Sequence record: MK327932.1
Source: Escherichia phage vB_EcoM_G2248
Length of the DNA stretch: 64,000 nt
Direction: 5' to 3' (one strand)
Each line of letters opens with the position of its first letter. The stretch's first letter is position 1. A program made the position numbers and the translations under genes. The notes beneath the pieces were generated by a model that had not been told where the DNA came from, did not search any database, and saw nothing but the letters and a program-made list of their open reading frames with translations. Below are positions 1-35,245 of this stretch, piece after piece.

Positions 1-278
1 TCATGACCAGGCAATAAAACTTCTTTGAAGCACGCTCGGTCGCCATCGGAAAACCATATATTATCACCAACATCGATAGAACTAATATAATCCCCTTCGT
101 GATTATAGATTGAACGTACATTACCCCAACGGTCTACCGTAGCGACAGTAAATGGTTTATCTAGATATGTAAACACACCATCAATATTAGGTTTTTGTTC
201 GTAACGCCAACAATCACGCAAAATACGCTTTTCGTCCTCACCAACCAACTTATATGTCTTCCCTTCTTCCCATTTCAT
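1..278 (-). CDS. hypothetical protein, 3' end outside window; paralog of 283..810
   Basis: ATG at 278..276; open frame to window edge; N-terminus MKWEEGKTYK matches MEWEVGKTYK of the next gene. Confidence 0.45.
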   Translation of the reverse strand, partial: MKWEEGKTYKLVGEDEKRILRDCWRYEQKPNIDGVFTYLDKPFTVATVDRWGNVRSIYNHEGDYISSIDVGDNIWFSDGDRACFKEVLLPGH

Positions 279-282
279 AATA

Positions 283-810
283 TCATCTCTCATTTTTGAT
301 ACGTGATTCTAATTGGATCATACGGTCTCGCGTTTGCTTGTATTCGCGGATAGCACCAATCCGGCTAGGCATACCATTTAGAACGCTCTTAATACCTTCT
401 AGGGTAGTGATTTTGGCAATACTATGTTGTAGCCCCGTCTTATCGATCAACTGAATGTCGTAGGCTTCCATAAGCAGACCCAGACGTTCTAAAGTTAGGT
501 CTTCTTCTTTTTCTTCCGATTCTGGAATCTTAGGTTCAATAGTAACTTCGGTAAAGAAACGACGCTCACCCGACCAAAACCACACACCGGAACAGCCAAT
601 AGGGGATTCTTTTAACGTCATAGAGTCGAAATCACTACCAATAATAGTAATTTCTCTAACATCACCATCATCGTCAATGTCTTCTACCCTAAACGGGCGA
701 CCAGCCAACAAGTCAACAATACATCTGTTAATAGACGACGAAAATTTAGTCAGTTCGGCTTTCGACGCTTCGCATTCAATCTTGTAAGTTTTACCAACTT
801 CCCATTCCAT
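283..810 (-). CDS. hypothetical protein
   Basis: Track ORF 283..819 starts with GTG; ATG at 810 has RBS GAGGTGA upstream. Confidence 0.5.
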   Translation of the reverse strand: MEWEVGKTYKIECEASKAELTKFSSSINRCIVDLLAGRPFRVEDIDDDGDVREITIIGSDFDSMTLKESPIGCSGVWFWSGERRFFTEVTIEPKIPESEEKEEDLTLERLGLLMEAYDIQLIDKTGLQHSIAKITTLEGIKSVLNGMPSRIGAIREYKQTRDRMIQLESRIKNER

Positions 811-1541: not shown

Positions 1542-2069
1542 TTATTTTAAATTTTTTCGAATGTATTCAGACCATTCCTTCCCTGTCATTTCGGACCCGT
1601 TCTGGAAACTGAAATATTCATACGGCATCGAGTCAAGATAAAACAGGATCATACATCGCGCCATATAATACCAATCACGATTAAAGTAAACTACGTTATC
1701 ACCAGTACCATCAGCACCTTTATCATAACCATCGCGGGTACGGGCGACCCATTGAATAGTATCATTTTTCTCACGGATAGTAACAGGTTCCCAATATCCA
1801 GCACATCCAGCATGACCACACGAACAAGTAAGGAAATATTGACCTTTTGCTTTGTTGTCATCCCATTCACGATGGATTGGTTCGATCTCGTGAAACAATG
1901 CCAAGCAATCATGATTATGCAACACTGGCTTACCATCAATCAATGCATGGAATGTATACAAACGACCAGTAGACAGATAGCTATCCTCACGCTCAACCAG
2001 TTCAATAGCAATCTTTTTAGCTCGTTCTTTGTGTCGTTGTGCTTTACGCTTACGGTTTAATGATTTCAT
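1542..2069 (-). CDS. hypothetical Cys/His-rich protein
   Basis: ORF with ATG at 2069 and RBS GGGGTGA; motif CSCGHAGCAG. Confidence 0.5.
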   Translation of the reverse strand: MKSLNRKRKAQRHKERAKKIAIELVEREDSYLSTGRLYTFHALIDGKPVLHNHDCLALFHEIEPIHREWDDNKAKGQYFLTCSCGHAGCAGYWEPVTIREKNDTIQWVARTRDGYDKGADGTGDNVVYFNRDWYYMARCMILFYLDSMPYEYFSFQNGSEMTGKEWSEYIRKNLK

Positions 2070-2086
2070 ATTCACCCCACACATTA

Positions 2087-2626
2087 TCAAAGGTCGCGAT
2101 ATAGTACATTATGAAAATGAGAACTTGCATTACCAATATTGTAGATAATAAATTCTTCATCCGGCGCTTGCGCTACAAATTGAGTATGAGCAACCGCCAC
2201 AACCTTAAAAATACGATCCGTGATCTTGTGTTTAATTTCTGCCCCTACTTCCATAGGAACATATTCATTTGTTTCTGTTTCAGTCGCAAAACAGCCATCT
2301 TCTTCATAAGCACGAATAAATCGGTCGCAATCAGTACGCTTAACAAATTCAAGAGTATATAATTCTCGTGAATTGTCGGTATAGACCAATACAGAATTAT
2401 TATGATAGCGAATCACATACAGGTTATTATCATCGTCAATTACGCAAAAGCTACGGATTCCTTCGCCTTGACTCCAGCAGATATTAACCACCGTTCCTCT
2501 AATAAAAAAACTTTCCTTTAAATTAAAACTAGCCAATGTGCTAGCGTGCATTTTAACAACAACACCATCACCAATTTCCAGTTTACGAAGTTTAACTTCT
2601 TTGCTCAGTACACAAAACATCATCAT
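2087..2626 (-). CDS. hypothetical protein
   Basis: ORF with RBS GAGAGGA before ATG at 2626. Confidence 0.5.
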   Translation of the reverse strand: MMMFCVLSKEVKLRKLEIGDGVVVKMHASTLASFNLKESFFIRGTVVNICWSQGEGIRSFCVIDDDNNLYVIRYHNNSVLVYTDNSRELYTLEFVKRTDCDRFIRAYEEDGCFATETETNEYVPMEVGAEIKHKITDRIFKVVAVAHTQFVAQAPDEEFIIYNIGNASSHFHNVLYRDL

Positions 2627-2726: not shown

Positions 2727-4589
2727 TTACATGTGCTTAACGCGGTTTACCATCTCGGAGTGTTTCCCGTGGTTGAATGGACGCAGATCAACAGATCCAA
2801 GATATCCACTAACGCGACGGATAACATTCATCTTTTCCAGATTGTCATTGCCGCAATCAGGACAAACAAAACCAGACTCGGTCGCTCTCATTTCCTTAGT
2901 AGATCCGCATACATGACATACATCAGAAGGAGTATTAACACCGAAGTAGTGCAATTTATCCATTGCATAGTCTACTACAGTTTCAAGACCTTTCAGGTTG
3001 TTTTTCATGTCTGGGAACTCAACATAAGAGATCATGCCACCGGACGCCAGCCAGTGATAATCTTTCTCAAAGTCGATTTTCTCAAATGGAGTGACTTTCC
3101 GGTCTACGTCAAGGTGGAATGAGTTGGTGTACCAGTCTTTATCGGTAGCACCCTTAACAATACCAAATTGCTCTCGGTCCAGTCGATTAAATCGATAGCA
3201 AAGGCTCTCGGCTGGCGTACCGTAAAGACTAAACCCAAGTCCGGTTTCATCCTTCCATTTTTCAGTATAATGACGCAAGATCTTAAGAATATGTTTACCG
3301 TATCGCTGCGCATCTTCCGAATCAAACGGATGAACACCAAACAGGACGCTCAATACCTCATGTAAACCAATATATCCAAGAGAGATACTAGCGCGACCAT
3401 CTTTCAGAACTTCCAAAATTTCATCGTTTTGATGAATACGGAAAAATGCACCTTCTGTATACAGTACAGGAGCAACATTGGCTTTAGCCCCTTTTAAAGC
3501 GTCTACGCGACTCATGAGCGCATCAAAGCAAATAGGCATACGATTAGCTAGCTCTTGTTCGAATAGCTCAATTCTGCGCATTACAGACGCTTTACCAGCA
3601 CGACGCGCGGCAATAAGGGCAATACGCGGAAGATTTAGAGTCACAACACCTAAGTTATTACGTCCGTCTAATACTTCTTCGCCTTTCTCATTATGCCACA
3701 CACCCAGGAAGCTACGACAACCCATCGGGCTAACCGGAACACTAGATCCAGTGATACTACGGTTATTCTTCGCAGAGATATAATCAGGGTAAAGACGCTT
3801 ACTAGAACATTCCAATGCAAGTTGCTTAATGTCGTAGTTCGGATCTTCCGGTTTAAGGTTTAATCCTTCTTCTAAGAACATCACCAGCTTAGGAAACACC
3901 GGAGTTATACCGTCTTTACCTAAACCTTTAGTTCGAACTTTCAGGATCGCTTTCTGAATCAGTTTTTCTTCCCAGCTAGTACCCATACCAAAGGTTAAAG
4001 TCACAAAAGGCGTTTGACCGTTGGTGGAGAACAAAGTGTTGATTTCATATTCCAACGCTTGATACCCGTCTAGCGTTTCTTTTTCTGTCTTCTCTTGTGC
4101 ATAGAGAGTATCAGCTTTGATTCCGTAGGTTTCGGCATCAGCAAGGTGTTTATGATATGTTTTCTCAACGTATGGCGCTAAAACCTGATCGATGTTTGCA
4201 ATTGTGGTCCCGCCATATTGATGACTTGCCACCTGTGCGATAATTTGAGCGGTTACAGCACAAGCAACGCCGATCGATTTCGGACTTTCGATTTGTGCGC
4301 TACCCAATTTAAAACCATTCTCTAACATGTCTTTGAGATTAACAAGACAGCAGTTAGTAAACGGCATAGCGGGTGCATAATCCATATCATGATAATGAAT
4401 ATCACCATCTACATGCGCTTTATAGATGTGCTCAGGTAACACGGTTTTAGCAATCTGTTTAGACACAGCACCAGCAATCAGATCTCGACGTGTCGGGAAT
4501 GTTCGCGCGTCTTTGTTCGCGTTCTCTTTGCTTACTTCGTTTTCTTTACCCGTTGCGATCTCTGTAATGTCTTTGATTAGTTTTTCCAT
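2727..4589 (-). CDS. nrdD: anaerobic ribonucleoside-triphosphate reductase (glycyl radical enzyme)
   Basis: 620 aa; C-terminal zinc site CPDCG and glycyl radical motif RVSGYLG; single uninterrupted ORF. Confidence 0.9.
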   Translation of the reverse strand: MEKLIKDITEIATGKENEVSKENANKDARTFPTRRDLIAGAVSKQIAKTVLPEHIYKAHVDGDIHYHDMDYAPAMPFTNCCLVNLKDMLENGFKLGSAQIESPKSIGVACAVTAQIIAQVASHQYGGTTIANIDQVLAPYVEKTYHKHLADAETYGIKADTLYAQEKTEKETLDGYQALEYEINTLFSTNGQTPFVTLTFGMGTSWEEKLIQKAILKVRTKGLGKDGITPVFPKLVMFLEEGLNLKPEDPNYDIKQLALECSSKRLYPDYISAKNNRSITGSSVPVSPMGCRSFLGVWHNEKGEEVLDGRNNLGVVTLNLPRIALIAARRAGKASVMRRIELFEQELANRMPICFDALMSRVDALKGAKANVAPVLYTEGAFFRIHQNDEILEVLKDGRASISLGYIGLHEVLSVLFGVHPFDSEDAQRYGKHILKILRHYTEKWKDETGLGFSLYGTPAESLCYRFNRLDREQFGIVKGATDKDWYTNSFHLDVDRKVTPFEKIDFEKDYHWLASGGMISYVEFPDMKNNLKGLETVVDYAMDKLHYFGVNTPSDVCHVCGSTKEMRATESGFVCPDCGNDNLEKMNVIRRVSGYLGSVDLRPFNHGKHSEMVNRVKHM

Positions 4590-4634: not shown

Positions 4635-5129
4635 TTATTTTACCAGTTCTGCTAATTCTTTTTCTTTAGCTTCTAGTTCAGCTTTAAGCTGTTTAATCTC
4701 TTGTCGCTTCTTATTAGCGGCTTCTTGCTTACTATTTCGGATAACCTGATCTAGATACAACTCCCAATCCTGAATATTTTTGATAATGTAACCGTCAACA
4801 TTAATTGGTCGGAGATTCAGTACAGCTTCCAGTTTAGTTGCAAAAACTTTAATTGCTGGTGTGAAGTATTCATATTCGTTATCTTCAAACCAATAACCTA
4901 GACTTGCATTCTCAATACGAAGATGAAGTTTAAGATCAAGGTCTTTATCATCGGTATATAGGTCTTTTACACACCCAATAGAATTAACAACAACTTTAAA
5001 ACGAATTTTATCTACACCACCAAACACATCTTCAAGAATATCAGCAATTGAGCTATTAGCGCAAGATTGGTCGCTGAATGCGTCAAGGTTTTCTTTAGTT
5101 ACAGTATACCAAACATCTTGTACCCACAT
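4635..5129 (-). CDS. hypothetical protein with C-terminal coiled coil
   Basis: ATG at 5129 preceded by the conserved RBS module GAGGATTATATTATG. Confidence 0.55.
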   Translation of the reverse strand: MWVQDVWYTVTKENLDAFSDQSCANSSIADILEDVFGGVDKIRFKVVVNSIGCVKDLYTDDKDLDLKLHLRIENASLGYWFEDNEYEYFTPAIKVFATKLEAVLNLRPINVDGYIIKNIQDWELYLDQVIRNSKQEAANKKRQEIKQLKAELEAKEKELAELVK

Positions 5130-5152
5130 AATATAATCCTCTCGTTGTTAAG

Positions 5153-5187
5153 TGGGAGTATTATAGCATACTCCCTTCGCATGTCAA
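5153..5187 (-). promoter_or_regulatory. PeSL-like early promoter with palindrome GGGAGTATGCTATAATACTCCC
   Basis: TTGACA at 5187..5182, TATAAT at 5165..5160; the palindrome spans the -10. Confidence 0.55.
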
Positions 5188-6362
5188 GCACTAACTTTTT
5201 TCTTTACTGCTTTCACCTTCTGGCGAATTGCTCGAATCTCTTCGATCTCTTTTTCAGTCTCTTTAACAATTTCTTTGCGATTCTGAATATCTGTATCTAG
5301 ATTATCATCAAGTTTAGGCAGCATGTCAATCAAGAACTTTTTAAAGTCTTTCAGGTTTCGGATAACAGCACCTTCACCCATTACCGCCACGCCTACACCA
5401 TCCGGCAGGTCGCCAAACAGTTTAACCAGTTCAGACAGATGATCATGATCTTCTAGTGCTTCTTCCGGTTCAGATGGCAGTTCCACAAAGTAATAACGTT
5501 CATCATTGCTGATCAGGTGATACCAGCAAAGCCCAAAAGATTTAGGAGTATATTCTACACCACCAACTTCAACTGCGTCAACACTTCCGAAAGAATCTAC
5601 TTTAGTTACCTTAAATCCATGTTCCAGCGTTTTAATAATTTCAATAACATGACTGGATACGGTTTCAGTATTAAACCAATGAGGCAAATTATGTGGATTT
5701 GGCTTGTATCGTTCGCCTACTTTAAATCTCTGACCACGCTCTTGCATACGGACATATTCAACTCGCGTGATTTCCGCGAAGTATTCAAATTCGCCACCGT
5801 CAAACACAGAAGCCCATTGATCACAAAAACGATCTGCCTTAACAGTTTCACCTTTCGCGGTGATCATGGTAGCTGATCCGTGCAATTCTTCTTCAACTAA
5901 AAAGCCATATTCGACAAAATCAACAAGTTTCATAGCTTCTTTGTGATCTGGATCATGCTCTCCCCAGAATCGCTTAAATTCTTGCAAACCTTCTGGGGTA
6001 AACGAATAACATTTACCTTTTTCAAAGTAAGTCGGCATTGCATCCTCTTTCTTGTTCATCGCTTCGTATGCCTCTTTTGAGATGCGTTTAAAGTATTTAC
6101 GCTCATTGTGCATAATCATAGTAGCCCAATAATCAACAATATCATTAGCGGAATAAACTACATCTCCAGCTTCAATAGTAATAACATGACCGTGGTCATC
6201 TTTTTCTAATACTTTAAAGCCCTTTTCTACGATTTCAGCAACACGAATATGACCACGGCGCGAAGCATCGGTCAGAATAATTGAATAGCGAGAAAAGTCT
6301 AGAAACTCATCTTTACCGCCTTCACGGAATGCATAGCAATGACCTTCAAAGAATTTAGCCAT
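5184..6362 (-). CDS. hypothetical protein with repeated ~65-aa domain (member of tandem paralog family)
   Basis: 392 aa; internal repeats share GF(K/L)V and NERKYFKRI motifs with the two following genes. Confidence 0.6.
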   Translation of the reverse strand: MAKFFEGHCYAFREGGKDEFLDFSRYSIILTDASRRGHIRVAEIVEKGFKVLEKDDHGHVITIEAGDVVYSANDIVDYWATMIMHNERKYFKRISKEAYEAMNKKEDAMPTYFEKGKCYSFTPEGLQEFKRFWGEHDPDHKEAMKLVDFVEYGFLVEEELHGSATMITAKGETVKADRFCDQWASVFDGGEFEYFAEITRVEYVRMQERGQRFKVGERYKPNPHNLPHWFNTETVSSHVIEIIKTLEHGFKVTKVDSFGSVDAVEVGGVEYTPKSFGLCWYHLISNDERYYFVELPSEPEEALEDHDHLSELVKLFGDLPDGVGVAVMGEGAVIRNLKDFKKFLIDMLPKLDDNLDTDIQNRKEIVKETEKEIEEIRAIRQKVKAVKKKVSA

Positions 6363-6384
6363 AATATAATCCTCTCGTTGTTTA

Positions 6385-6422
6385 GATGGGAGTATCTTAC
6401 TACTCCCGTTTCATCATGTCAA
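6385..6422 (-). promoter_or_regulatory. PeSL-like early promoter with palindrome GGGAGTAGTAAGATACTCCC
   Basis: TTGACA at 6422..6417 overlaps the stop codon of the upstream gene. Confidence 0.5.
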
Positions 6423-6985
6423 GCGTTAAATGACTTTTGGATCTCTTTCAGTTCAGCTACTTTATCGGCGCTATATTTTGCTTGATGTTCCATGCGCTTA
6501 AGCTCACCTTTGATATAGGTTTCTAGCTTAGGTTTATTCTCAATCAGAAAATCTTTCAGGTCATCGGCATTTTTAAAGTATAGCTGATTATCAAAGCTAA
6601 AATCTTCCAGCGTCAATGATACCAAAGAAGACTTCGCAAACAAGTTAATCAGATCTTCCAGAGATTCTTCTTTCTTAATTGGTTTCATTTCTTCAAACTG
6701 CTTTTTAGTGATGCGTTTAAAGTATTTTCGCTCGTTTGCAGCAATCAGAACAGATGCACCTTCATACTCATGAGTTTCTACCAGATACACACGCCCCATC
6801 GCATCAACAGTGAGAACTTTAAAGCCGTTACAAAGCACGTCATACAAGAACTTATTATGTTGCGGACATCGTTTGATAAATTCTGCGACTGTTTCTGCAC
6901 TACGGAAAGTATAGTAACGACCTCGTTCAAAAACAGCGTCATTGGGTGACTTAACCGAATATACTTTGTATGTTTTCTGTACCAT
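6419..6985 (-). CDS. hypothetical protein, paralog of 5184..6362
   Basis: Shares NERKYFKRITKKQFEEM and GFKVLTVD motifs; start placed at ATG 6985 behind RBS GAGGATTATATT. Confidence 0.55.
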   Translation of the reverse strand: MVQKTYKVYSVKSPNDAVFERGRYYTFRSAETVAEFIKRCPQHNKFLYDVLCNGFKVLTVDAMGRVYLVETHEYEGASVLIAANERKYFKRITKKQFEEMKPIKKEESLEDLINLFAKSSLVSLTLEDFSFDNQLYFKNADDLKDFLIENKPKLETYIKGELKRMEHQAKYSADKVAELKEIQKSFNA

Positions 6986-6999
6986 AATATAATCCTCTA

Positions 7000-7272
7000 T
7001 CATTTCACTAATTGAACAGCACGGAACAGAATGCGGTCACACGGAAGCAGCATAAATTCCCAACGCGGATCAAAGTCTTTAGCGGTATATGTTTTCCCAT
7101 CAACCGAGATTTCACTTACATAACCAATAGGTGACACTTTAAGAACAGTAAATCCATTCTTGATGACTTCGTAGGTATCTTTCAATCCTTCGTAGTCATC
7201 CTCTAGGAAGTCTTTACGTGCTTGCTCAGATTTAAAAACATAGGCCACACCGGATTTAAACATCTTACGCAT
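7000..7272 (-). CDS. hypothetical protein, single copy of the paralog domain
   Basis: 90 aa with GFTVLKVSPIGYV motif; RBS AAGGAGAATCAACA before ATG 7272. Confidence 0.5.
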   Translation of the reverse strand: MRKMFKSGVAYVFKSEQARKDFLEDDYEGLKDTYEVIKNGFTVLKVSPIGYVSEISVDGKTYTAKDFDPRWEFMLLPCDRILFRAVQLVK

Positions 7273-7296
7273 TGTTGATTCTCCTTCTTGATTAGA

Positions 7297-7332
7297 TGGG
7301 AGTATTTTACTACTCCCATTTCATGTTGTCAA
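7297..7332 (-). promoter_or_regulatory. PeSL-like early promoter with palindrome GGGAGTAGTAAAATACTCCC
   Basis: TTGACA at 7332..7327, -10 TAAAAT, palindrome spans the -10. Confidence 0.5.
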
Positions 7333-7335
7333 CCA

Positions 7336-7809
7336 CTATCTTAATCTTTGTATGAATTGTTTCTTATACTTCTTCGTGATCTCTTCTCTTGTATCCGCGT
7401 CACAGTAATCGAAACCTTCTGCGTCCATAATAGCAACCATCTCCGCTCGTGTCAAGCGTGAAAATCGTTTTACTTTATCAACAGCATATTGAGGATGTAA
7501 ATGATTGTTGGTGTAGTCTCCTTTGATGTAATTAACATAGTTTGTAGCCCAAACAACGAAATCAGCACCTAAAGCACCAACACCAAACCGTTTAAAGTCT
7601 CCGGTCAACGATCCTTCTAGGCGGTTGCAACACGAATGAAGCAATCCCCTTACGCGGCCTTGCCCTTTCCCATCTAGATCGTGGTCGTGGTCAAGATGGT
7701 TTTTGCTCATATCCTCAAAAAGTGGCAATTGACAAAGGGGGCAAATGCCCCCCTGTTTTTCGAATAGTTCTTGTTTGTACTCTTTAGCACTCTTAGCAGT
7801 CAGTAACAT
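7336..7809 (-). CDS. 49: endonuclease VII (Holliday junction resolvase)
   Basis: Motifs HLDHDHD, GxVRGLL and CxxC match T4 gp49; track TTG start moved to ATG 7809 (MLLTAK...). Confidence 0.9.
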   Translation of the reverse strand: MLLTAKSAKEYKQELFEKQGGICPLCQLPLFEDMSKNHLDHDHDLDGKGQGRVRGLLHSCCNRLEGSLTGDFKRFGVGALGADFVVWATNYVNYIKGDYTNNHLHPQYAVDKVKRFSRLTRAEMVAIMDAEGFDYCDADTREEITKKYKKQFIQRLR

Positions 7810-7833
7810 AAATTCACCCTCCAAAGAAGGTAT

Positions 7834-8115
7834 TTAACCATTAATCTTGTTTTTGACTACAAAGGATCGGAACTCATCAAAACCACCGATATAATCACCA
7901 TCATAGAAAATCTGCGGCATGGTGGCAATAACTTCTACCCCTGCGCGATCCTGAATATCGGCAATGATAGAATCAATCTTTACCGGACGACCGTTTTCGT
8001 CCACACCATCATTAACCGGAATGTAGATGTAAGGGATCTTACGCGCTTCACAAAGGCGCTTTGCATTCTGGCAATACTTACAGTTGTAACCTTCAAAACC
8101 AAAAATTTCTACCAT
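7834..8115 (-). CDS. nrdC: glutaredoxin/thioredoxin-like protein
   Basis: CKYCQNAKRL active site and MPQIFYDGDYIGGFDE resemble T4 NrdC; ATG at 8115. Confidence 0.8.
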   Translation of the reverse strand: MVEIFGFEGYNCKYCQNAKRLCEARKIPYIYIPVNDGVDENGRPVKIDSIIADIQDRAGVEVIATMPQIFYDGDYIGGFDEFRSFVVKNKING

Positions 8116-8123
8116 GTTATACC

Positions 8124-8936
8124 TCAATCTACGTTAGTTACATAAACTTCTTGCGTATCAGAAGACTTACCACCTGAACGATCTAGGCAATAGGTCTTAT
8201 TCAACAGGACGCAGTTTAAATCATTCCGCTTGATAAAGTCAAGGAGATGATCATTTACCTTTCCCTTATGATGCGTGACATTACTGATACCAAACTGAAA
8301 ACCACGCGCCATAATCGATTCTACCCACTGATAGAATTTAATCTCTTCCTCGTCACTCCAGAACTTATTATATTCCGCAGAAGTGATAAGGTACGGCGGG
8401 TCCAAATAAACGAAATCACCTGGCAAGATCTCGATCTCGTCATAGCGACCAGACGTAAAACTGATTCGACCGTCTTTGTTTTCTTCCTTAAAATTCAGGA
8501 CACGCTCTACCGCGTTTTCGTTAAAAGTCCGGCGACCAAAATTAGCATTAAATTCTCCCTTCCTGTTATGGCGGTTAATGTTGCTAAAACTGTGCTGAAT
8601 CAGAACAAACAGAGATAGCGGATCTGGATTCTCATTATACTTCTTGCGGAATGCCATATAAGAATCTTTATCATCACGAGACAAACCATTCTCGGCAATA
8701 ATCAGCTTGATCGTAGAAACCGGATCAGGACACTCGTCAATCGCTTTGTACGCGTCAATTAAGCGGTGATCATAGTCATTAGCCAGAACACCCCCTTCGA
8801 CGTACAGAGACACGCTCAAGCCACCACAAAAGGCATCAACAAAGCGGTTATAGTGCTTAGGGAAATACTTACTAACACTTGGCAATAACTTTTCCTTATT
8901 GCCAGTATAGGGAATTAAACCTAATGCTTTCTTCAT
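8124..8936 (-). CDS. dam: DNA adenine methyltransferase (Dam family)
   Basis: NRFVDAFCGGLSVSL (motif I), DFVYLDPPY (motif IV), YNKFWSDEEE; close match to T4 Dam. Confidence 0.85.
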   Translation of the reverse strand: MKKALGLIPYTGNKEKLLPSVSKYFPKHYNRFVDAFCGGLSVSLYVEGGVLANDYDHRLIDAYKAIDECPDPVSTIKLIIAENGLSRDDKDSYMAFRKKYNENPDPLSLFVLIQHSFSNINRHNRKGEFNANFGRRTFNENAVERVLNFKEENKDGRISFTSGRYDEIEILPGDFVYLDPPYLITSAEYNKFWSDEEEIKFYQWVESIMARGFQFGISNVTHHKGKVNDHLLDFIKRNDLNCVLLNKTYCLDRSGGKSSDTQEVYVTNVD

Positions 8937-9367
8937 TATCCCTTCCTCAAATAAGTTCGCTCAATCTCTACCAGTTCGAAAAATTCATCCCAATCACACG
9001 GAAAATTGCAGTTTCCAAAATGGTCTTCATTGTAAAGCTCTTTACCGGATGGCAACTTAATATCTGTTACAGTATACCAACCGCAACAATCACAATCACC
9101 CTCAACAACAGAAACTTTCGTCGGAATTTGCATCATTGCCAGATAGGTCGGCACGTCAGACTGTTCAAAGATCATGTAACCTTCATTGTCAAACGAAACA
9201 AAATTATCATCGCCCAAAAAAGGGATATAGTGGTCATAATCGGTTACAGGTTGACCGTGCAATTCCCATTCTACAATTTTAACATTACCACTAAACTTGA
9301 TACCCATCATATCAACCATAAAATGAGTATCGTCAATGTAAATCTTACTAGGAGTTGGATAAACCAT
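8936..9367 (-). CDS. hypothetical protein
   Basis: ATG 9367 behind conserved RBS GAGGATTATATAATG. Confidence 0.5.
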   Translation of the reverse strand: MVYPTPSKIYIDDTHFMVDMMGIKFSGNVKIVEWELHGQPVTDYDHYIPFLGDDNFVSFDNEGYMIFEQSDVPTYLAMMQIPTKVSVVEGDCDCCGWYTVTDIKLPSGKELYNEDHFGNCNFPCDWDEFFELVEIERTYLRKG

Positions 9368-9377
9368 TATATAATCC

Positions 9378-9671
9378 TCATATCTCAGAGAATAGAATCT
9401 CTGTTAGCTTCACTGACTGCTCTCTGAATGTTAGCGTATACTCGAAAGGAAAGTCAACACCTAATTTCAGAAGAGAATAGCCTACCGCCTCTTTATGCTT
9501 ATCTGTTAGGGCAATCCTAACCAATTCCAGTTGAATCTCTTTAGGCGGTGAATGGATAGTAACACGGGTATCATGCAATGTCCAGTCACCATTACGAATC
9601 AAGATTAACGGTTTATCGTCATTGAAGATCACCGACCCCTTTCCGGTCGGTGAGTGTTTTATACTAATCAT
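9378..9671 (-). CDS. hypothetical protein
   Basis: Track ORF; start moved from TTG to ATG 9671. Confidence 0.45.
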   Translation of the reverse strand: MISIKHSPTGKGSVIFNDDKPLILIRNGDWTLHDTRVTIHSPPKEIQLELVRIALTDKHKEAVGYSLLKLGVDFPFEYTLTFREQSVKLTEILFSEI

Positions 9672-10185: not shown

Positions 10186-10494
10186 TTATTTCACGTTAAC
10201 GCCGTCATCAATCCAGCCGACGCTATTTGGTTTAACAGTTTTACCATAGGATGCATACTTAATCAAGCATGGTTTAACATCATTATCAAATCTTCCTAAA
10301 CGTACTCCCAAATCAGGAATATCCATGTATGCGGCTTTATATCCCCATGTGCCATATTCAGAATCAATCTCAACCGGACGGCCTTTAAAAGCATACACTA
10401 CACCGTGACGGTCAACGATAACATAGCAATAGCCAGCCGGAAGATACACAGTTTCGCCGTAAACTTTAACTGGAGTAGCAGAAGAGATAAACAT
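10186..10494 (-). CDS. hypothetical protein
   Basis: ATG 10494 behind conserved RBS module and a PeSL-like promoter. Confidence 0.5.
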   Translation of the reverse strand: MFISSATPVKVYGETVYLPAGYCYVIVDRHGVVYAFKGRPVEIDSEYGTWGYKAAYMDIPDLGVRLGRFDNDVKPCLIKYASYGKTVKPNSVGWIDDGVNVK

Positions 10495-10520
10495 AATATA
10501 ATCCTCACATCGTTCATTTG

Positions 10521-12751: not shown

Positions 12752-12949
12752 TCACTCTTCTGTTTCATTTCTTTTATATGGTACTATAACAGGATTAATA
12801 CAGCAAGCACCAATTACGTTATGAGCACCACAATTTAAGCATTTATAATCATGGAACTTATTAAGGAATCGCCCGAACTCATAACCGACTAACGCCGCGT
12901 GTACTTGAGTATCGATCTCATCCATATCAGCCAATGTTTTAACCTTCAT
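12752..12949 (-). CDS. small zinc-ribbon-like protein
   Basis: CLNCG...CC motif; ATG 12949 behind conserved RBS GAGGATTATATTATG. Confidence 0.45.
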   Translation of the reverse strand: MKVKTLADMDEIDTQVHAALVGYEFGRFLNKFHDYKCLNCGAHNVIGACCINPVIVPYKRNETEE

Positions 12950-12959
12950 AATATAATCC

Positions 12960-13250
12960 TCAAATACTGGTTTTGCGAAGATGGTCATTACATGCTTTTA
13001 ATGCATCAGTCGAGGTGTCATAGCGAGTATTATCATAGCACCAATAACCATCTGTCAACTGATAAATTAATCCATCCTTTTTAGCGTCGATGAAAGACAA
13101 TTCTTTGAAAGTTTCTACTTTCTTTGCTGATACTCCACGGTCACGGCGTTTATAGAGTTTAGCTAAAACGCGTTCAGCTTGTTCCTCTTTATCGCCAGAC
13201 AGATCCCAGATGACGTTTCTGATATGCTTGATTAATTGTTCAGTGGTCAT
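12960..13250 (-). CDS. hypothetical protein
   Basis: ATG 13250 behind RBS AAGGAGAATCAAAT and a PeSL-like promoter. Confidence 0.5.
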   Translation of the reverse strand: MTTEQLIKHIRNVIWDLSGDKEEQAERVLAKLYKRRDRGVSAKKVETFKELSFIDAKKDGLIYQLTDGYWCYDNTRYDTSTDALKACNDHLRKTSI

Positions 13251-19107: not shown

Positions 19108-19552
19108 ATTCCACCACCACAATGTTAATGTCTGGAGTGGCAATATTAATGATTTCTTCTACACATTCCCACTCAAGGCCACCGATACCGCAACCGATTT
19201 TAGGAATATAGAAAGGCTGTATAGCACCTTCAAAAACATCATTGAGAGCCTCAAATCCTTTCAGGATAGCACCATATTCAGCATTTGGACCCGGTCGGAA
19301 TTGGGTATAGAGATTAACCCCGCACCAATTATAACCATTAACTTGATGCGTCCAGACACTAAACCCACCCAGCTTTTCGACCTTACCGCGAGAAGTTTGC
19401 TTGTCAATCTCTAACGCTTGCGGGAACTCTTTCGCGATCTTCGCAGCAATACCAGCGCCCATAGTATGAAAACAATTACAACCATGAATTAAATGACCTT
19501 TTCCTTGTTTAAACAGGGCGATGAGATCGCCCTTTACAGTATCAATAATCAT
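19097..19552 (-). CDS. macro domain (ADP-ribose binding/processing) protein
   Basis: HGCNCFHTMGAGIAAKIAKEFP resembles the macro-domain N-terminal motif; RBS GAGAGG. Confidence 0.55.
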   Translation of the reverse strand: MIIDTVKGDLIALFKQGKGHLIHGCNCFHTMGAGIAAKIAKEFPQALEIDKQTSRGKVEKLGGFSVWTHQVNGYNWCGVNLYTQFRPGPNAEYGAILKGFEALNDVFEGAIQPFYIPKIGCGIGGLEWECVEEIINIATPDINIVVVEYDK

Positions 19553-19567
19553 AATATAAACCTCTCA

Positions 19568-26156: not shown

Positions 26157-26409
26157 AGAATGAAATTTTCACAGACACAATTTTACCATAAGTGAAGAAT
26201 GAATATACATTATCGAGATATTCAACGTCACCTACAATCACATCAAACTGAGGATCAGCCACCGCCGCAACATATTCTACCAGTTCATCAAGAGAATGCA
26301 ACTTAATTTCATCAATTCGGCTGTATTTGGTTGCATCTTTGATTTTAAAACCACGTTCTTTCAGCTTATCAATTAGAATTTCACGCGGAGTTTCAAACAG
26401 TTTGCTCAT
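26089..26409 (-). CDS. hypothetical protein
   Basis: ATG 26409 behind conserved RBS GAGGATTATATTATG. Confidence 0.5.
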   Translation of the reverse strand: MSKLFETPREILIDKLKERGFKIKDATKYSRIDEIKLHSLDELVEYVAAVADPQFDVIVGDVEYLDNVYSFFTYGKIVSVKISFCENVEVLASEPEKPTDNGPSAA

Positions 26410-26430
26410 AATATAATCCTCACATTAAAT

Positions 26431-33946: not shown

Positions 33947-34760
33947 CCTTCCACACCTTCCTTGCATCATAGTTTTTACCTTTAGAAACAAATTTATATG
34001 TGTTAAGGTAGATAATATTGCTCCAGTCTTTCGGGCTAATCTCAACAAGTTTTGTTTTAATGTGTCCCGGTAGATATGCTTTGATCATGTGATCACTTCC
34101 ACGCATACCTTTTACATCGCTCCATTTGATTTTTAAGCGTGTTTTATTGCTCAAGGTAGGAGTAGATGCATATTGCTTTAAAAGTGCCTCTAAAAACTGC
34201 TGACGGGCTTTAGGAGTTACATAGTGTAAGTTAAGACCCAGCATCACAGTATTACCCGCCTTTGTCTTAGAATCACCCAGACAAATGATCAGCGGGAAAA
34301 CATCCCAATATGGCAAAGTGTCTTTATACTTAGCATCATACATAAAGGTATAGATTCGCCCTACTTGCGGTTTTACAATCTGGTGTCCCTTTATTCCAGC
34401 TTTTATTGTTTTAGTAAACCACTCCTGTGATTTTTCTTTAGGACGACTCTTTGATACAGCACGCATAGACGCACGAAAATCATTAATCATCATCATTGCG
34501 CGTTGCTGCTTATTGAGACCCTTTGCGCCTTTCCCTTTTAGTTTTTCAACTTCTATTGCTGTTTTAATTTCGCTGGCATAACGAGACATACTTTTAGTGA
34601 AAGTCGCATAGGCTATTCCCTTAGAATCTGCAAATGCTTTAGCTGTCATGCCTTTGGCTTTTGCTTTCGCAAATTCTACACCCAATTCGACCCACTGTTT
34701 AGACTTTCTTTTTTGGGGAGACGGCTTTTCGTCTTCTGTGATTATTTCAAATACGCTCAT
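33939..34760 (-). CDS. 2: DNA end protector protein gp2
   Basis: 273-aa basic protein at the T4 gene 2 position upstream of gene 4. Confidence 0.65.
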   Translation of the reverse strand: MSVFEIITEDEKPSPQKRKSKQWVELGVEFAKAKAKGMTAKAFADSKGIAYATFTKSMSRYASEIKTAIEVEKLKGKGAKGLNKQQRAMMMINDFRASMRAVSKSRPKEKSQEWFTKTIKAGIKGHQIVKPQVGRIYTFMYDAKYKDTLPYWDVFPLIICLGDSKTKAGNTVMLGLNLHYVTPKARQQFLEALLKQYASTPTLSNKTRLKIKWSDVKGMRGSDHMIKAYLPGHIKTKLVEISPKDWSNIIYLNTYKFVSKGKNYDARKVWKDA

Positions 34761-34771
34761 AATATTATCCT

Positions 34772-35245
34772 CTATTTGTTAAGCCCTTTAAAGCCAAACA
34801 CTTTCTTTAATGCATGTTCGGTGATGATCTTAAACTCCATGTTATGCTTTTGGCATAATTTCACGGCAGCTAACCATTTTTCAGTATTTTTTGTGTATGT
34901 CCATACTTCATGCATATATCGTTGCTTTGTCTTCGCGGTCATTCTTTTTGGCTTTTCCGGTGGCCTTGTCTCTTTAGCTGGTTTAACTTCCCATAAATGC
35001 TCCTTGCCATCATCAAACTTAACGTAAAAATCCATAAAGTATCTGTGTCTTTTTCCGTCTGTTGATGACTCATAAGGAATTACTACGGTCTCAGATCCCC
35101 ATTTTGCAACTCTAGGATTGCGGTCTAGCCACTGCATGATCCATCTTTCCCAGCTTGAACGGTATGTGATCTTACGTATATCCCCTTTATACTTTTCCTT
35201 ATTCTCAGGAACATACTTGCCCTTATAAGTGTTAGATCCTCCCAT
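34772..35245 (-). CDS. 4: head completion protein gp4
   Basis: 157 aa, divergently arranged next to gene 53 as in T4. Confidence 0.7.
   Translation of the reverse strand: MGGSNTYKGKYVPENKEKYKGDIRKITYRSSWERWIMQWLDRNPRVAKWGSETVVIPYESSTDGKRHRYFMDFYVKFDDGKEHLWEVKPAKETRPPEKPKRMTAKTKQRYMHEVWTYTKNTEKWLAAVKLCQKHNMEFKIITEHALKKVFGFKGLNK

Follow-up and report, generated by a model that had tools for sequence, protein, structure and literature searches.

Expansion of a GoF/Frd.2-like barrel domain in the early region of a Krischvirus coliphage

What is the domain that recurs in three adjacent genes of Escherichia phage vB_EcoM_G2248, how far does its expansion reach, and what might its products do for the phage? 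The stretch analysed here, referred to as the window, comprises 64,000 nucleotides (nt) of sequence record MK327932.1. Its minus strand carries open reading frames (ORFs) at 5184..6362, 6419..6985 and 7000..7272, encoding proteins of 392, 188 and 90 amino acids (aa) and called g5184, g6419 and g7000 below. A first-pass annotation, made from the letters alone, had described these three genes as a tandem paralogue family of local origin, holding five copies of a ~65-aa domain of unknown function and driven by one cassette promoter per gene. The copies are labelled A, B and C in g5184, D in g6419, E in g7000 and F in a further gene, g4635. The explanation that we favour on balance is a lineage-specific expansion of the GoF/Frd.2 domain, with genes read from early promoter cassettes and products that would be multi-site binding proteins acting on mRNA or on the RNA machinery.

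Judged by its sequence, the window is DNA of Krischvirus, the RB49/Phi1-like T-even ('pseudo-T-even') coliphages. Region 5100-7400 is 99.8% identical to the Escherichia phages vB_EcoM_G37-3 (G37-3 below) and G5211, and 93-96% identical to 54 further Krischvirus genomes, RB49, Phi1, JSE, GEC-3S and ECD7 among them. The three genes lie in a minus-strand early region flanked by gene 49 (endonuclease VII) and nrdD.

The repeated domain, its family and its extent

The three ORFs carry the motifs quoted for them (F-E-x-G...Y-x-F, GFKVL/GFTVLK and NERKYFKRI[ST]K), and the five copies are genuinely related: all 10 pairwise Smith-Waterman comparisons among A-E are significant, with z from 4.1 to 18 and none of 300 shuffles reaching the observed score for any pair. 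The presence of three internal copies in g5184 was likewise borne out, as the family profile, a hidden Markov model (HMM), recovers three separate full-length domains at independent E-values (i-E) of 1e-22 to 1e-25, and a second family HMM does so at 8e-26, 2e-23 and 2e-26; across the copies, profile E-values reach down to 1e-27. For g7000 the domain spans residues 3-87 at E 1e-28, a value to be read with the copy itself forming part of the model. The size of the unit needed correction, since the HMM envelopes (residues 1-97, 111-200 and 212-297 in g5184, 18-94 in g6419 and 3-87 in g7000) put it at ~85-95 aa rather than ~65 aa. In the MAFFT alignment eight columns are invariant (F5, G8, Y11, G40, F41, V43, G50 and F83 in g7000 numbering). 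Apart from one acidic residue in a [DE]-x-x-[YF]-F strand, conservation is confined to hydrophobic positions and glycines, and there is no hint of an enzyme.

Considering the question of which family this is, the repeated domain is very likely a member of the GoF/Frd.2 family. The GoF/Frd.2/MotB.1 family of T4-type phages was described by Kim et al. 2025, who labelled it with an 'LSm-like fold' (PMC12152347). The label 'goF mRNA metabolism modulator' is given to g5184 and g6419 by RefSeq and phrog_8944. T4 GoF (141 aa) belongs to phrog_622 (E 4.6e-38), which is also matched by g5184 (E 2.9e-20 over 3 stretches, next to E 5e-208 for phrog_8944), by g6419 (E 3.2e-5) and, as a cross-match beside its own phrog_16115, by g7000 (E 1.3e-6). 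Comparison of the window copies with T4 GoF by hhalign gave E 3.6e-5, and an HMM built from 11 Krischvirus copies alone matched T4 GoF (residues 4-91, E 9e-10) and T4 Frd.2 (residues 2-88, E 3e-4), its match to MotB.1 being marginal (0.03). The earlier view of the domain as unknown is not supported, since it has a named family, with RefSeq and PHROG 8944 goF labels; a match to a 'well-characterised' family, which was to refute that view, is nevertheless only half given, the role of the wild-type proteins being poorly understood.

Pfam and NCBIfam scans of the window proteins gave nothing above threshold; RecT (E 6e-4, below cutoff), LYR, VioA and other matches were rejected as sub-threshold noise, and no window protein matched PF03197 (FRD2) even at E<=1. 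T4-like Frd.2 proteins that carry PF03197 were retrieved by the family profile at E 1e-17 to 1e-3, a retrieval which is not independent because the profile contained T4 Frd.2; the independent link is the Krischvirus-only model and its match to T4 Frd.2 given above. The name frd.2 had in fact been attached to the 392-aa gene already in the 2003 annotation of RB49, and in RB49, Phi1 and JSE it misleads on position, as the gene lies away from the frd locus. In G37-3 the place proper to frd.2, between frd and gene 32 (L010 10819-11997), is taken by a gene of equal length, 392 aa, which was rejected as kin of g5184; its product is unrelated and rich in repeated Cys-x2-Cys motifs.

The likeness to T4 GoF (ComC-alpha) comprises a homologous N-terminal barrel of ~90 aa, the same predicted topology and the same nearest structural neighbour, FeoA, and a linker that joins the barrel to a variable C-terminal part; members on both sides are small proteins of T4-type phages, and those of Krischvirus are, by their promoters, probably early as well. 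The systems differ in that the barrels of T4 are encoded singly, by three genes lying far apart, whereas Krischvirus has 11 barrels in 8 clustered genes with double and triple fusions. They differ too in strand beta-5, where Krischvirus has a basic [DE]-R-[KR]-[YF]-F and T4 GoF has E-A-G-F-F, and in the C-terminal part: the Krischvirus tail, a short alpha/beta part followed by a long helix, showed no similarity on comparison with the C-terminal domains of T4 GoF and Frd.2. This tail, of ~85 aa, is a second module common to the 392-aa and 188-aa proteins (Smith-Waterman z 6.6).

The extent of the family had been drawn too narrowly, for its boundary does not fall at 5184: g4635, g283 and a gene truncated by the window edge (1..278) also belong. 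The divergent copy in g4635 agrees with the family motifs in the alignment, its Smith-Waterman pairwise scores alone are not significant, and its independent support is a match to phrog_3710 (E 4e-5), which T4 GoF matches too (8e-12), because g4635 was in the alignment behind the family profiles. Both of the other genes were outside the model that found them, g283 at E 7e-12 (with phrog_5347 at E 3e-65 and phrog_622 at E 7.6e-11) and the 1..278 gene, also of phrog_5347, at E 1.7e-10; the full-length orthologue of the latter in G37-3 encodes 161 aa with barrel and tail (L004 5681-6166). The tail-module profile matched g283 weakly (E 0.05) and left g4635 unmatched. These two genes, 283..810 and 1..278, sit on the far side of nrdD/nrdG from the other copies, and in G37-3 the array continues past the window with proteins of 161 aa, 274 aa (two barrels) and 158 aa, so that 11 barrels in 8 genes are found from gene 49 to nrdH, clustered around nrdD/nrdG. 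A scan of the rest of the G37-3 genome revealed one further, distant member only, beside gene 41 (E 8.6e-8).

The same gene order of the array is kept in RB49, JSE and Phi1, which indicates that the expansion is older than the sampled Krischvirus diversity. In the identity matrix neighbouring copies are mutual best partners, forming the clusters {A, B, C, D} and {g283, 161, 158, 274a, 274b}, with the two barrels of the 274-aa protein 52% identical; local duplication with divergence, as first suggested, is therefore upheld, in the form of tandem duplication of genes and of intragenic domains. Domain fusion recurs in the family, as GoF proteins with two barrels are likewise encoded at the canonical goF-cef locus in the Karamvirus phages CC31 and PG7; copy numbers outside Krischvirus rest on hints from BFVD and tblastn. 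Word-indexed homologue searches with g7000 and g5184 returned Krischvirus orthologues only, and an exhaustive profile search gave 13 matches at E<=1e-3, some of which are spurious large repeat proteins.

The domain, its fold, the 'goF' label of two of the genes and the RB49 name 'frd.2' are already public. We found no description in the searchable literature of the internal triplication, of ORF060, ORF057 and ORF051-048 ('hypothetical') as members of the same family, of the total of 11-12 copies compared to three dispersed single-barrel genes in T4, of the distinct coiled-coil tail unrelated to the T4 C-terminal domains, or of mosaicism at the level of domains. The GoF/Frd.2 family is conserved across T4-type phages and its wild-type function has been unknown for ~50 years; the Krischvirus proteins, which naturally range from one barrel to three, tailed or tail-less, and include natural basic variants at a T4 suppressor position, could ease structure-function work. 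Beyond these points and the g6419 mosaic described below, the result is a refinement of annotation and not a new biological system.

Two observations on members outside the central cluster can be added. The distant member of G37-3 (211 aa, phrog_16187, L008 13631-14266) adjoins the gene 41 helicase, a neighbourhood worth noting as T4 GoF mutants act on gene 41 mRNA; the 211-aa 'Dc2' of ECD7, a candidate orthologue, is among the BFVD fold matches. The gene g283, intact in the window, is annotated in the G37-3 record (L004 6171-6696) as two ORFs of 122 and 62 aa, which implies a frameshift and may mean a pseudogene or a sequencing error in G37-3, or simply a difference between isolates.

Early promoter cassettes, selection and allele exchange

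Promoter-early stem-loops (PeSLs) of RB49 and Phi1 drive early transcription and mediate modular shuffling (Arbiol et al. 2010, PMC2839356). PeSL-type promoters were found as near-identical cassettes at three of four adjacent genes (g7000, g5184 and g4635), laid out as TTGACA, spacer, stem GGGAGTA, -10 box and TACTCCC, and over 78 nt the cassettes of g5184 and g7000 are 74% identical. The stem GGGAGTA/TACTCCC was seen nowhere else in the window, and since this particular stem is exclusive to the three promoters, the cassettes look to have been duplicated together with their genes. The arrangement resembles that of RB49 and Phi1 in placing a consensus sigma-70 promoter and stem-loop ahead of accessory ORFs in a hyperplastic region (PMC2839356), and differs in that one recombination joint lies inside coding sequence and not at a PeSL. 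The sigma-70 consensus of these promoters leads us to infer early expression of the family genes.

The claim of a separate promoter for every gene was right for g7000 and g5184 and wrong for g6419, which has a start cassette only. Neither a promoter scan nor the sequence itself revealed a promoter upstream of g6419; its ATG at 6985 is preceded by GAGGATTATATT, directly past the g7000 stop codon, and the start lies 12 nt after that stop, so the gene is presumably co-transcribed with g7000. The ribosome-binding/start cassette of g6419, GAGGATTATATTATG, is common to g5184 and g4635.

Comparison with the orthologues in RB49, JSE and Phi1 gave ratios of nonsynonymous to synonymous substitution rates (dN/dS) of 0.00-0.30 for every family gene (0.00-0.05 for g7000 and 0.24-0.30 for g5184), apart from one pairwise value of 0.63 that comes from very few substitutions. 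Such low values indicate purifying selection, as opposed to the positive selection of an arms race, and maintained proteins rather than decaying duplicates, with no gene-wide positive selection.

The synonymous divergence (dS) of g6419 from RB49 and JSE is 0.79-0.91, compared to 0.04-0.15 for the flanking genes, and its protein identity among 56 genomes runs from 69% to 100%. A 60-nt identity scan against RB49, JSE and Phi1 resolves the gene into parts: over the barrel part (7000-6700) identity is ~80% to each of the references, and over the tail (6640-6461) it is 51-71% for RB49 and JSE and 98-100% for Phi1. As these identity patterns differ, barrel and tail have been exchanged independently. 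A level of 100% is regained at ~6460, in the final 40 nt of g6419 and just upstream of the PeSL starting at 6422. Between the two parts, bin 6641-6700 agrees with RB49 and JSE at 98%, with both flanks at 51-85%. A conserved DNA island (6684..6736), which encodes NERKYFKRITKK at the end of the barrel, shares 77% of its 53 nt with the corresponding stretch of repeat A (6055..6107); this island may be the recombination joint of the barrel and tail modules. A second diverged block, 5800-5560, spans the boundary of repeats B and C in g5184. The g6419 mosaic shows that recombination shuffles modules smaller than a gene as well as whole PeSL-flanked ORFs. For a host-interaction or anti-defence role, raised in the first-pass annotation, the signals point both ways: selection is not of the arms-race kind, and mosaic allele exchange at g6419 does fit a variable accessory locus.

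Predicted fold and possible modes of action

An AlphaFold2 model of the 188-aa g6419, built from a 60-sequence family alignment, reaches a predicted local distance difference test score (pLDDT) of 88-96 over residues 20-100. Strands at 24-27, 55-60, 66-70, 77-81 and 89-92 form a bent five-strand antiparallel sheet or barrel in the order b1, two helices, b2, b3, b4, a short helix, b5 and a linker helix; past the linker come a poorly defined stretch and a 37-residue helix (151-187, pLDDT 84-94). As modelled, the fold is a small five-strand barrel of SH3-like, FeoA type, as published in 2025 for T4 GoF, and the nearest solved folds are SH3-like barrels of the FeoA type. The likeness to the FeoA or DtxR-type SH3-like domain (e.g. 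PDB 6e55; 16% sequence identity) is one of fold only, and the phage locus lacks the iron-transport context of FeoA. Among predicted viral structures in BFVD there were 39 matches at E<=1e-3, VR7 'GoF' included, and those with names all belong to T4-type phages or to large myophages related to them, with hosts in Escherichia, Aeromonas, Serratia, Citrobacter, Acinetobacter, Cronobacter, Pectobacterium, Erwinia and others. A profile search of PDB sequences found nothing, its best match being at E 0.13.

How the family may work can be sketched as follows. The Krischvirus lineage would have expanded a GoF/Frd.2-type domain, a ~90-aa SH3-like barrel with two helices after strand 1, through local tandem duplication of whole genes and of domains within genes, giving proteins of one, two and three barrels. 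Most of these are predicted to end in a helical tail, the last 35-40 residues forming one long helix that probably serves oligomerisation. Transcription would start immediately after infection from the sigma-70 PeSL cassettes, and these cassettes, together with the conserved barrel/tail island, could also serve as sites at which alleles and modules recombine between phages. The products would be non-enzymatic modules with several binding sites that influence, post-transcriptionally, the stability of phage mRNA or the host machinery for RNA processing and termination. This role as early multi-site binders, directed at mRNA stability or at host RNA machinery, is put forward tentatively, with rather less than even confidence, and action at the RNA level is proposed by analogy with T4 GoF. 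The latter is an abundant early protein (~20,000 copies per cell) that runs as monomer and dimer and that the phage can do without in the laboratory. Two changes in it, D25Y and G84R, both inside the barrel, permit growth of T4 on certain rho alleles; GoF(D25Y) raises gene 41 mRNA through a longer half-life, independently of Hfq, and stabilises a reporter RNA with the gene 41 5' untranslated region after transcription. At the position of T4 G84, 5 of the 11 Krischvirus copies have K or R, and one column earlier 8 of the 11 have R, which brings the Krischvirus motif closer to the gain-of-function E-A-R-F-F than to the wild-type E-A-G-F-F of T4; the D25Y-equivalent column falls in a variable-length loop and gave no reliable alignment. 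In a dCas13d screen, frd.2 was the sole fitness gene of unknown function in T4 (PMC11879866).

Several points weigh against this proposal. Wild-type T4 GoF and MotB.1 have little effect in the RNA reporter assay, in which only the gain-of-function mutant is active. The isoelectric point (pI) of the barrels is mostly 4.3-5.9, acidic to neutral, with only repeats D and E mildly basic, and such charges do not favour general binding of nucleic acid. Oligomerisation through the tail helix, probable as it may be, is read from a monomer model only.

The most conservative alternative is that the copies resemble one another by chance or composition, or are decaying non-functional duplicates. A pairwise identity of just 15-36%, the non-significant pairwise scores of g4635 and the frameshifted g283 orthologue of G37-3 could be cited in its favour, but its probability is practically negligible: it is refuted by shuffles that match the score of no pair among the five copies, by profile matches down to 1e-27, by the confident fold model and by intact ORFs with dN/dS well below 1 against RB49, JSE and Phi1. 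The published label 'LSm-like fold' raises another possibility, namely that the barrels are true Sm/LSm RNA chaperones that form rings, the triple barrel of g5184 dimerising through its tail helix into a pseudo-hexameric, Hfq-like ring. With three barrels and a long helix at the C-terminus, the numbers would allow a 3x2 arrangement, and relatives with two barrels are known from Krischvirus as well as from the Karamvirus goF-cef locus. The model, however, has no helix before strand 1, where Sm proteins typically have one, and places two helices between strands 1 and 2 as FeoA does; no Hfq or Sm protein is among the fold matches listed; in the literature, AlphaFold3 arrived at neither a confident dimer nor a confident hexamer of T4 GoF or MotB.1; and the single-sequence AlphaFold2 model of the 392-aa g5184 (pLDDT 44) is unusable for the arrangement of its three barrels. 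Nothing computed here supports a ring, and we consider it highly improbable.

A more serious competitor, possible though on the unlikely side, holds that the barrels are SH3/FeoA-type protein-binding adaptors with no RNA role, each paralogue directed at a different host protein for takeover or counter-defence, and that expansion and shuffling diversified the targets. The acidic surface charge of most barrels, SH3/FeoA-type fold neighbours, the position of the genes in a hyperplastic, PeSL-rich accessory region and the several deeply diverged g6419 alleles among genomes otherwise 93-100% identical all accord with this, as do conserved columns that are mostly hydrophobic or glycine bar one acidic position, which suggests freely varying surfaces. 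It is harder to reconcile with dN/dS of 0.05-0.3 and no whole-gene positive selection, with a gene content and order fixed in all Krischvirus genomes examined, unlike anti-defence islands that vary by presence and absence, with GoF pull-downs in E. coli that yielded GoF alone, and with the only genetics of the family, the rho-allele suppressors and mRNA stabilisation of T4 goF, which points to RNA metabolism. At the opposite end stands a stronger RNA-based idea, in which Krischvirus barrels are natively 'activated' RNA-protecting proteins whose [DE]-R-[KR]-[YF]-F mimics G84R, with six-barrel dimers of g5184 shielding mRNAs from Rho and RNases and each paralogue serving one transcript or host factor. 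We regard this idea as quite improbable.

Feature coordinates and neighbouring observations

Table 1. Coordinates of the GoF/Frd.2-like genes, their domains and associated elements in the window
Feature	Position	Strand	Details
Gene 49, endonuclease VII	7336..7824		Pfam PF02945/PF09124
PeSL-type early promoter, g7000	7298..7332	-	TTGACA-17-TAAAAT, 11/12 match; -10 inside stem-loop GGGAGTA/TACTCCC
g7000	7000..7272	-	90 aa; single GoF-like beta-barrel (repeat E), no tail; orthologue RB49 ORF060
g6419	6419..6985	-	188 aa; barrel, linker helix, C-terminal tail; orthologue RB49 ORF059
g6419 repeat D barrel	~6704..6934	-
g6419 tail	6422..6703	-	ends in long helix
Conserved DNA island	6684..6736	-	encodes NERKYFKRITKK, end of g6419 barrel
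PeSL-type early promoter, g5184	6388..6422	-	10/12 match, same stem; overlaps g6419 stop codon
g5184	5184..6362	-	392 aa; three tandem barrels then tail; named 'frd.2' in RB49, Phi1, JSE
g5184 repeat A	6072..6362	-
g5184 repeat B	5763..6032	-
g5184 repeat C	5472..5729	-
g5184 tail	5187..5459	-
PeSL-type early promoter, g4635	5154..5187	-	12/12 match, extended TG, same stem; overlaps g5184 stop codon
g4635	4635..5129	-	164 aa; divergent sixth copy and helical coiled-coil-like tail; orthologue RB49 ORF057
g4635 repeat F	4851..5129	-
nrdD	2727..4589
g283	283..810	-	175 aa; barrel and tail; downstream of nrdG; orthologue RB49 ORF051
Edge-truncated family gene, 5' part	1..278	-	runs past left window edge; phrog_5347
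GAGGATTATATTATG sites	5127-5141, 6360-6374, 6983-6997, 9365-9379, 10492-10506	-
Further GAGGATTATATTATG sites	12947-12961, 19550-19564, 26407-26421, 34758-34772	-

The 15-nt start cassette occurs 9 times in the window with at most one mismatch, compared to 0.01 occurrences expected by chance, and appears to be a translation-initiation module common to early accessory genes and distinct from the PeSL promoter. The PeSL spacer ATGAAA(T/C)GGGAG (6404-6421 and 7314-7331) shares 83% of 18 nt with ATGAAATGGGAAG (MKWE...) at 268-285, the 5' coding sequence of the family gene cut by the window edge; the likeness is probably due to chance, and could be a trace of cassette and gene having been duplicated together.

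Between nrdD and nrdG, at 1542..2626 on the minus strand, there are two unrelated hypothetical genes, orthologous to RB49 ORF054 and ORF055. They are 97-98% identical to RB49 and Phi1 and 50% and 74% identical to JSE (dS 0.7-1.5), and on this pattern of divergence we read 1542..2626 as a further allele-replacement block of the same region. Homing endonuclease genes distinguish some relatives: JSE nrdD is, per its annotation, interrupted by one (L006 13415-16037) and GEC-3S has an HNH homing endonuclease between nrdC and dam (L001 9018-9773), the window having neither of these insertions, in nrdD or at 7834..8936. Further along, the GC skew changes sign at ~36000, from negative below 36 kb to positive above, which suggests that minus-strand early genes give way there to plus-strand genes.

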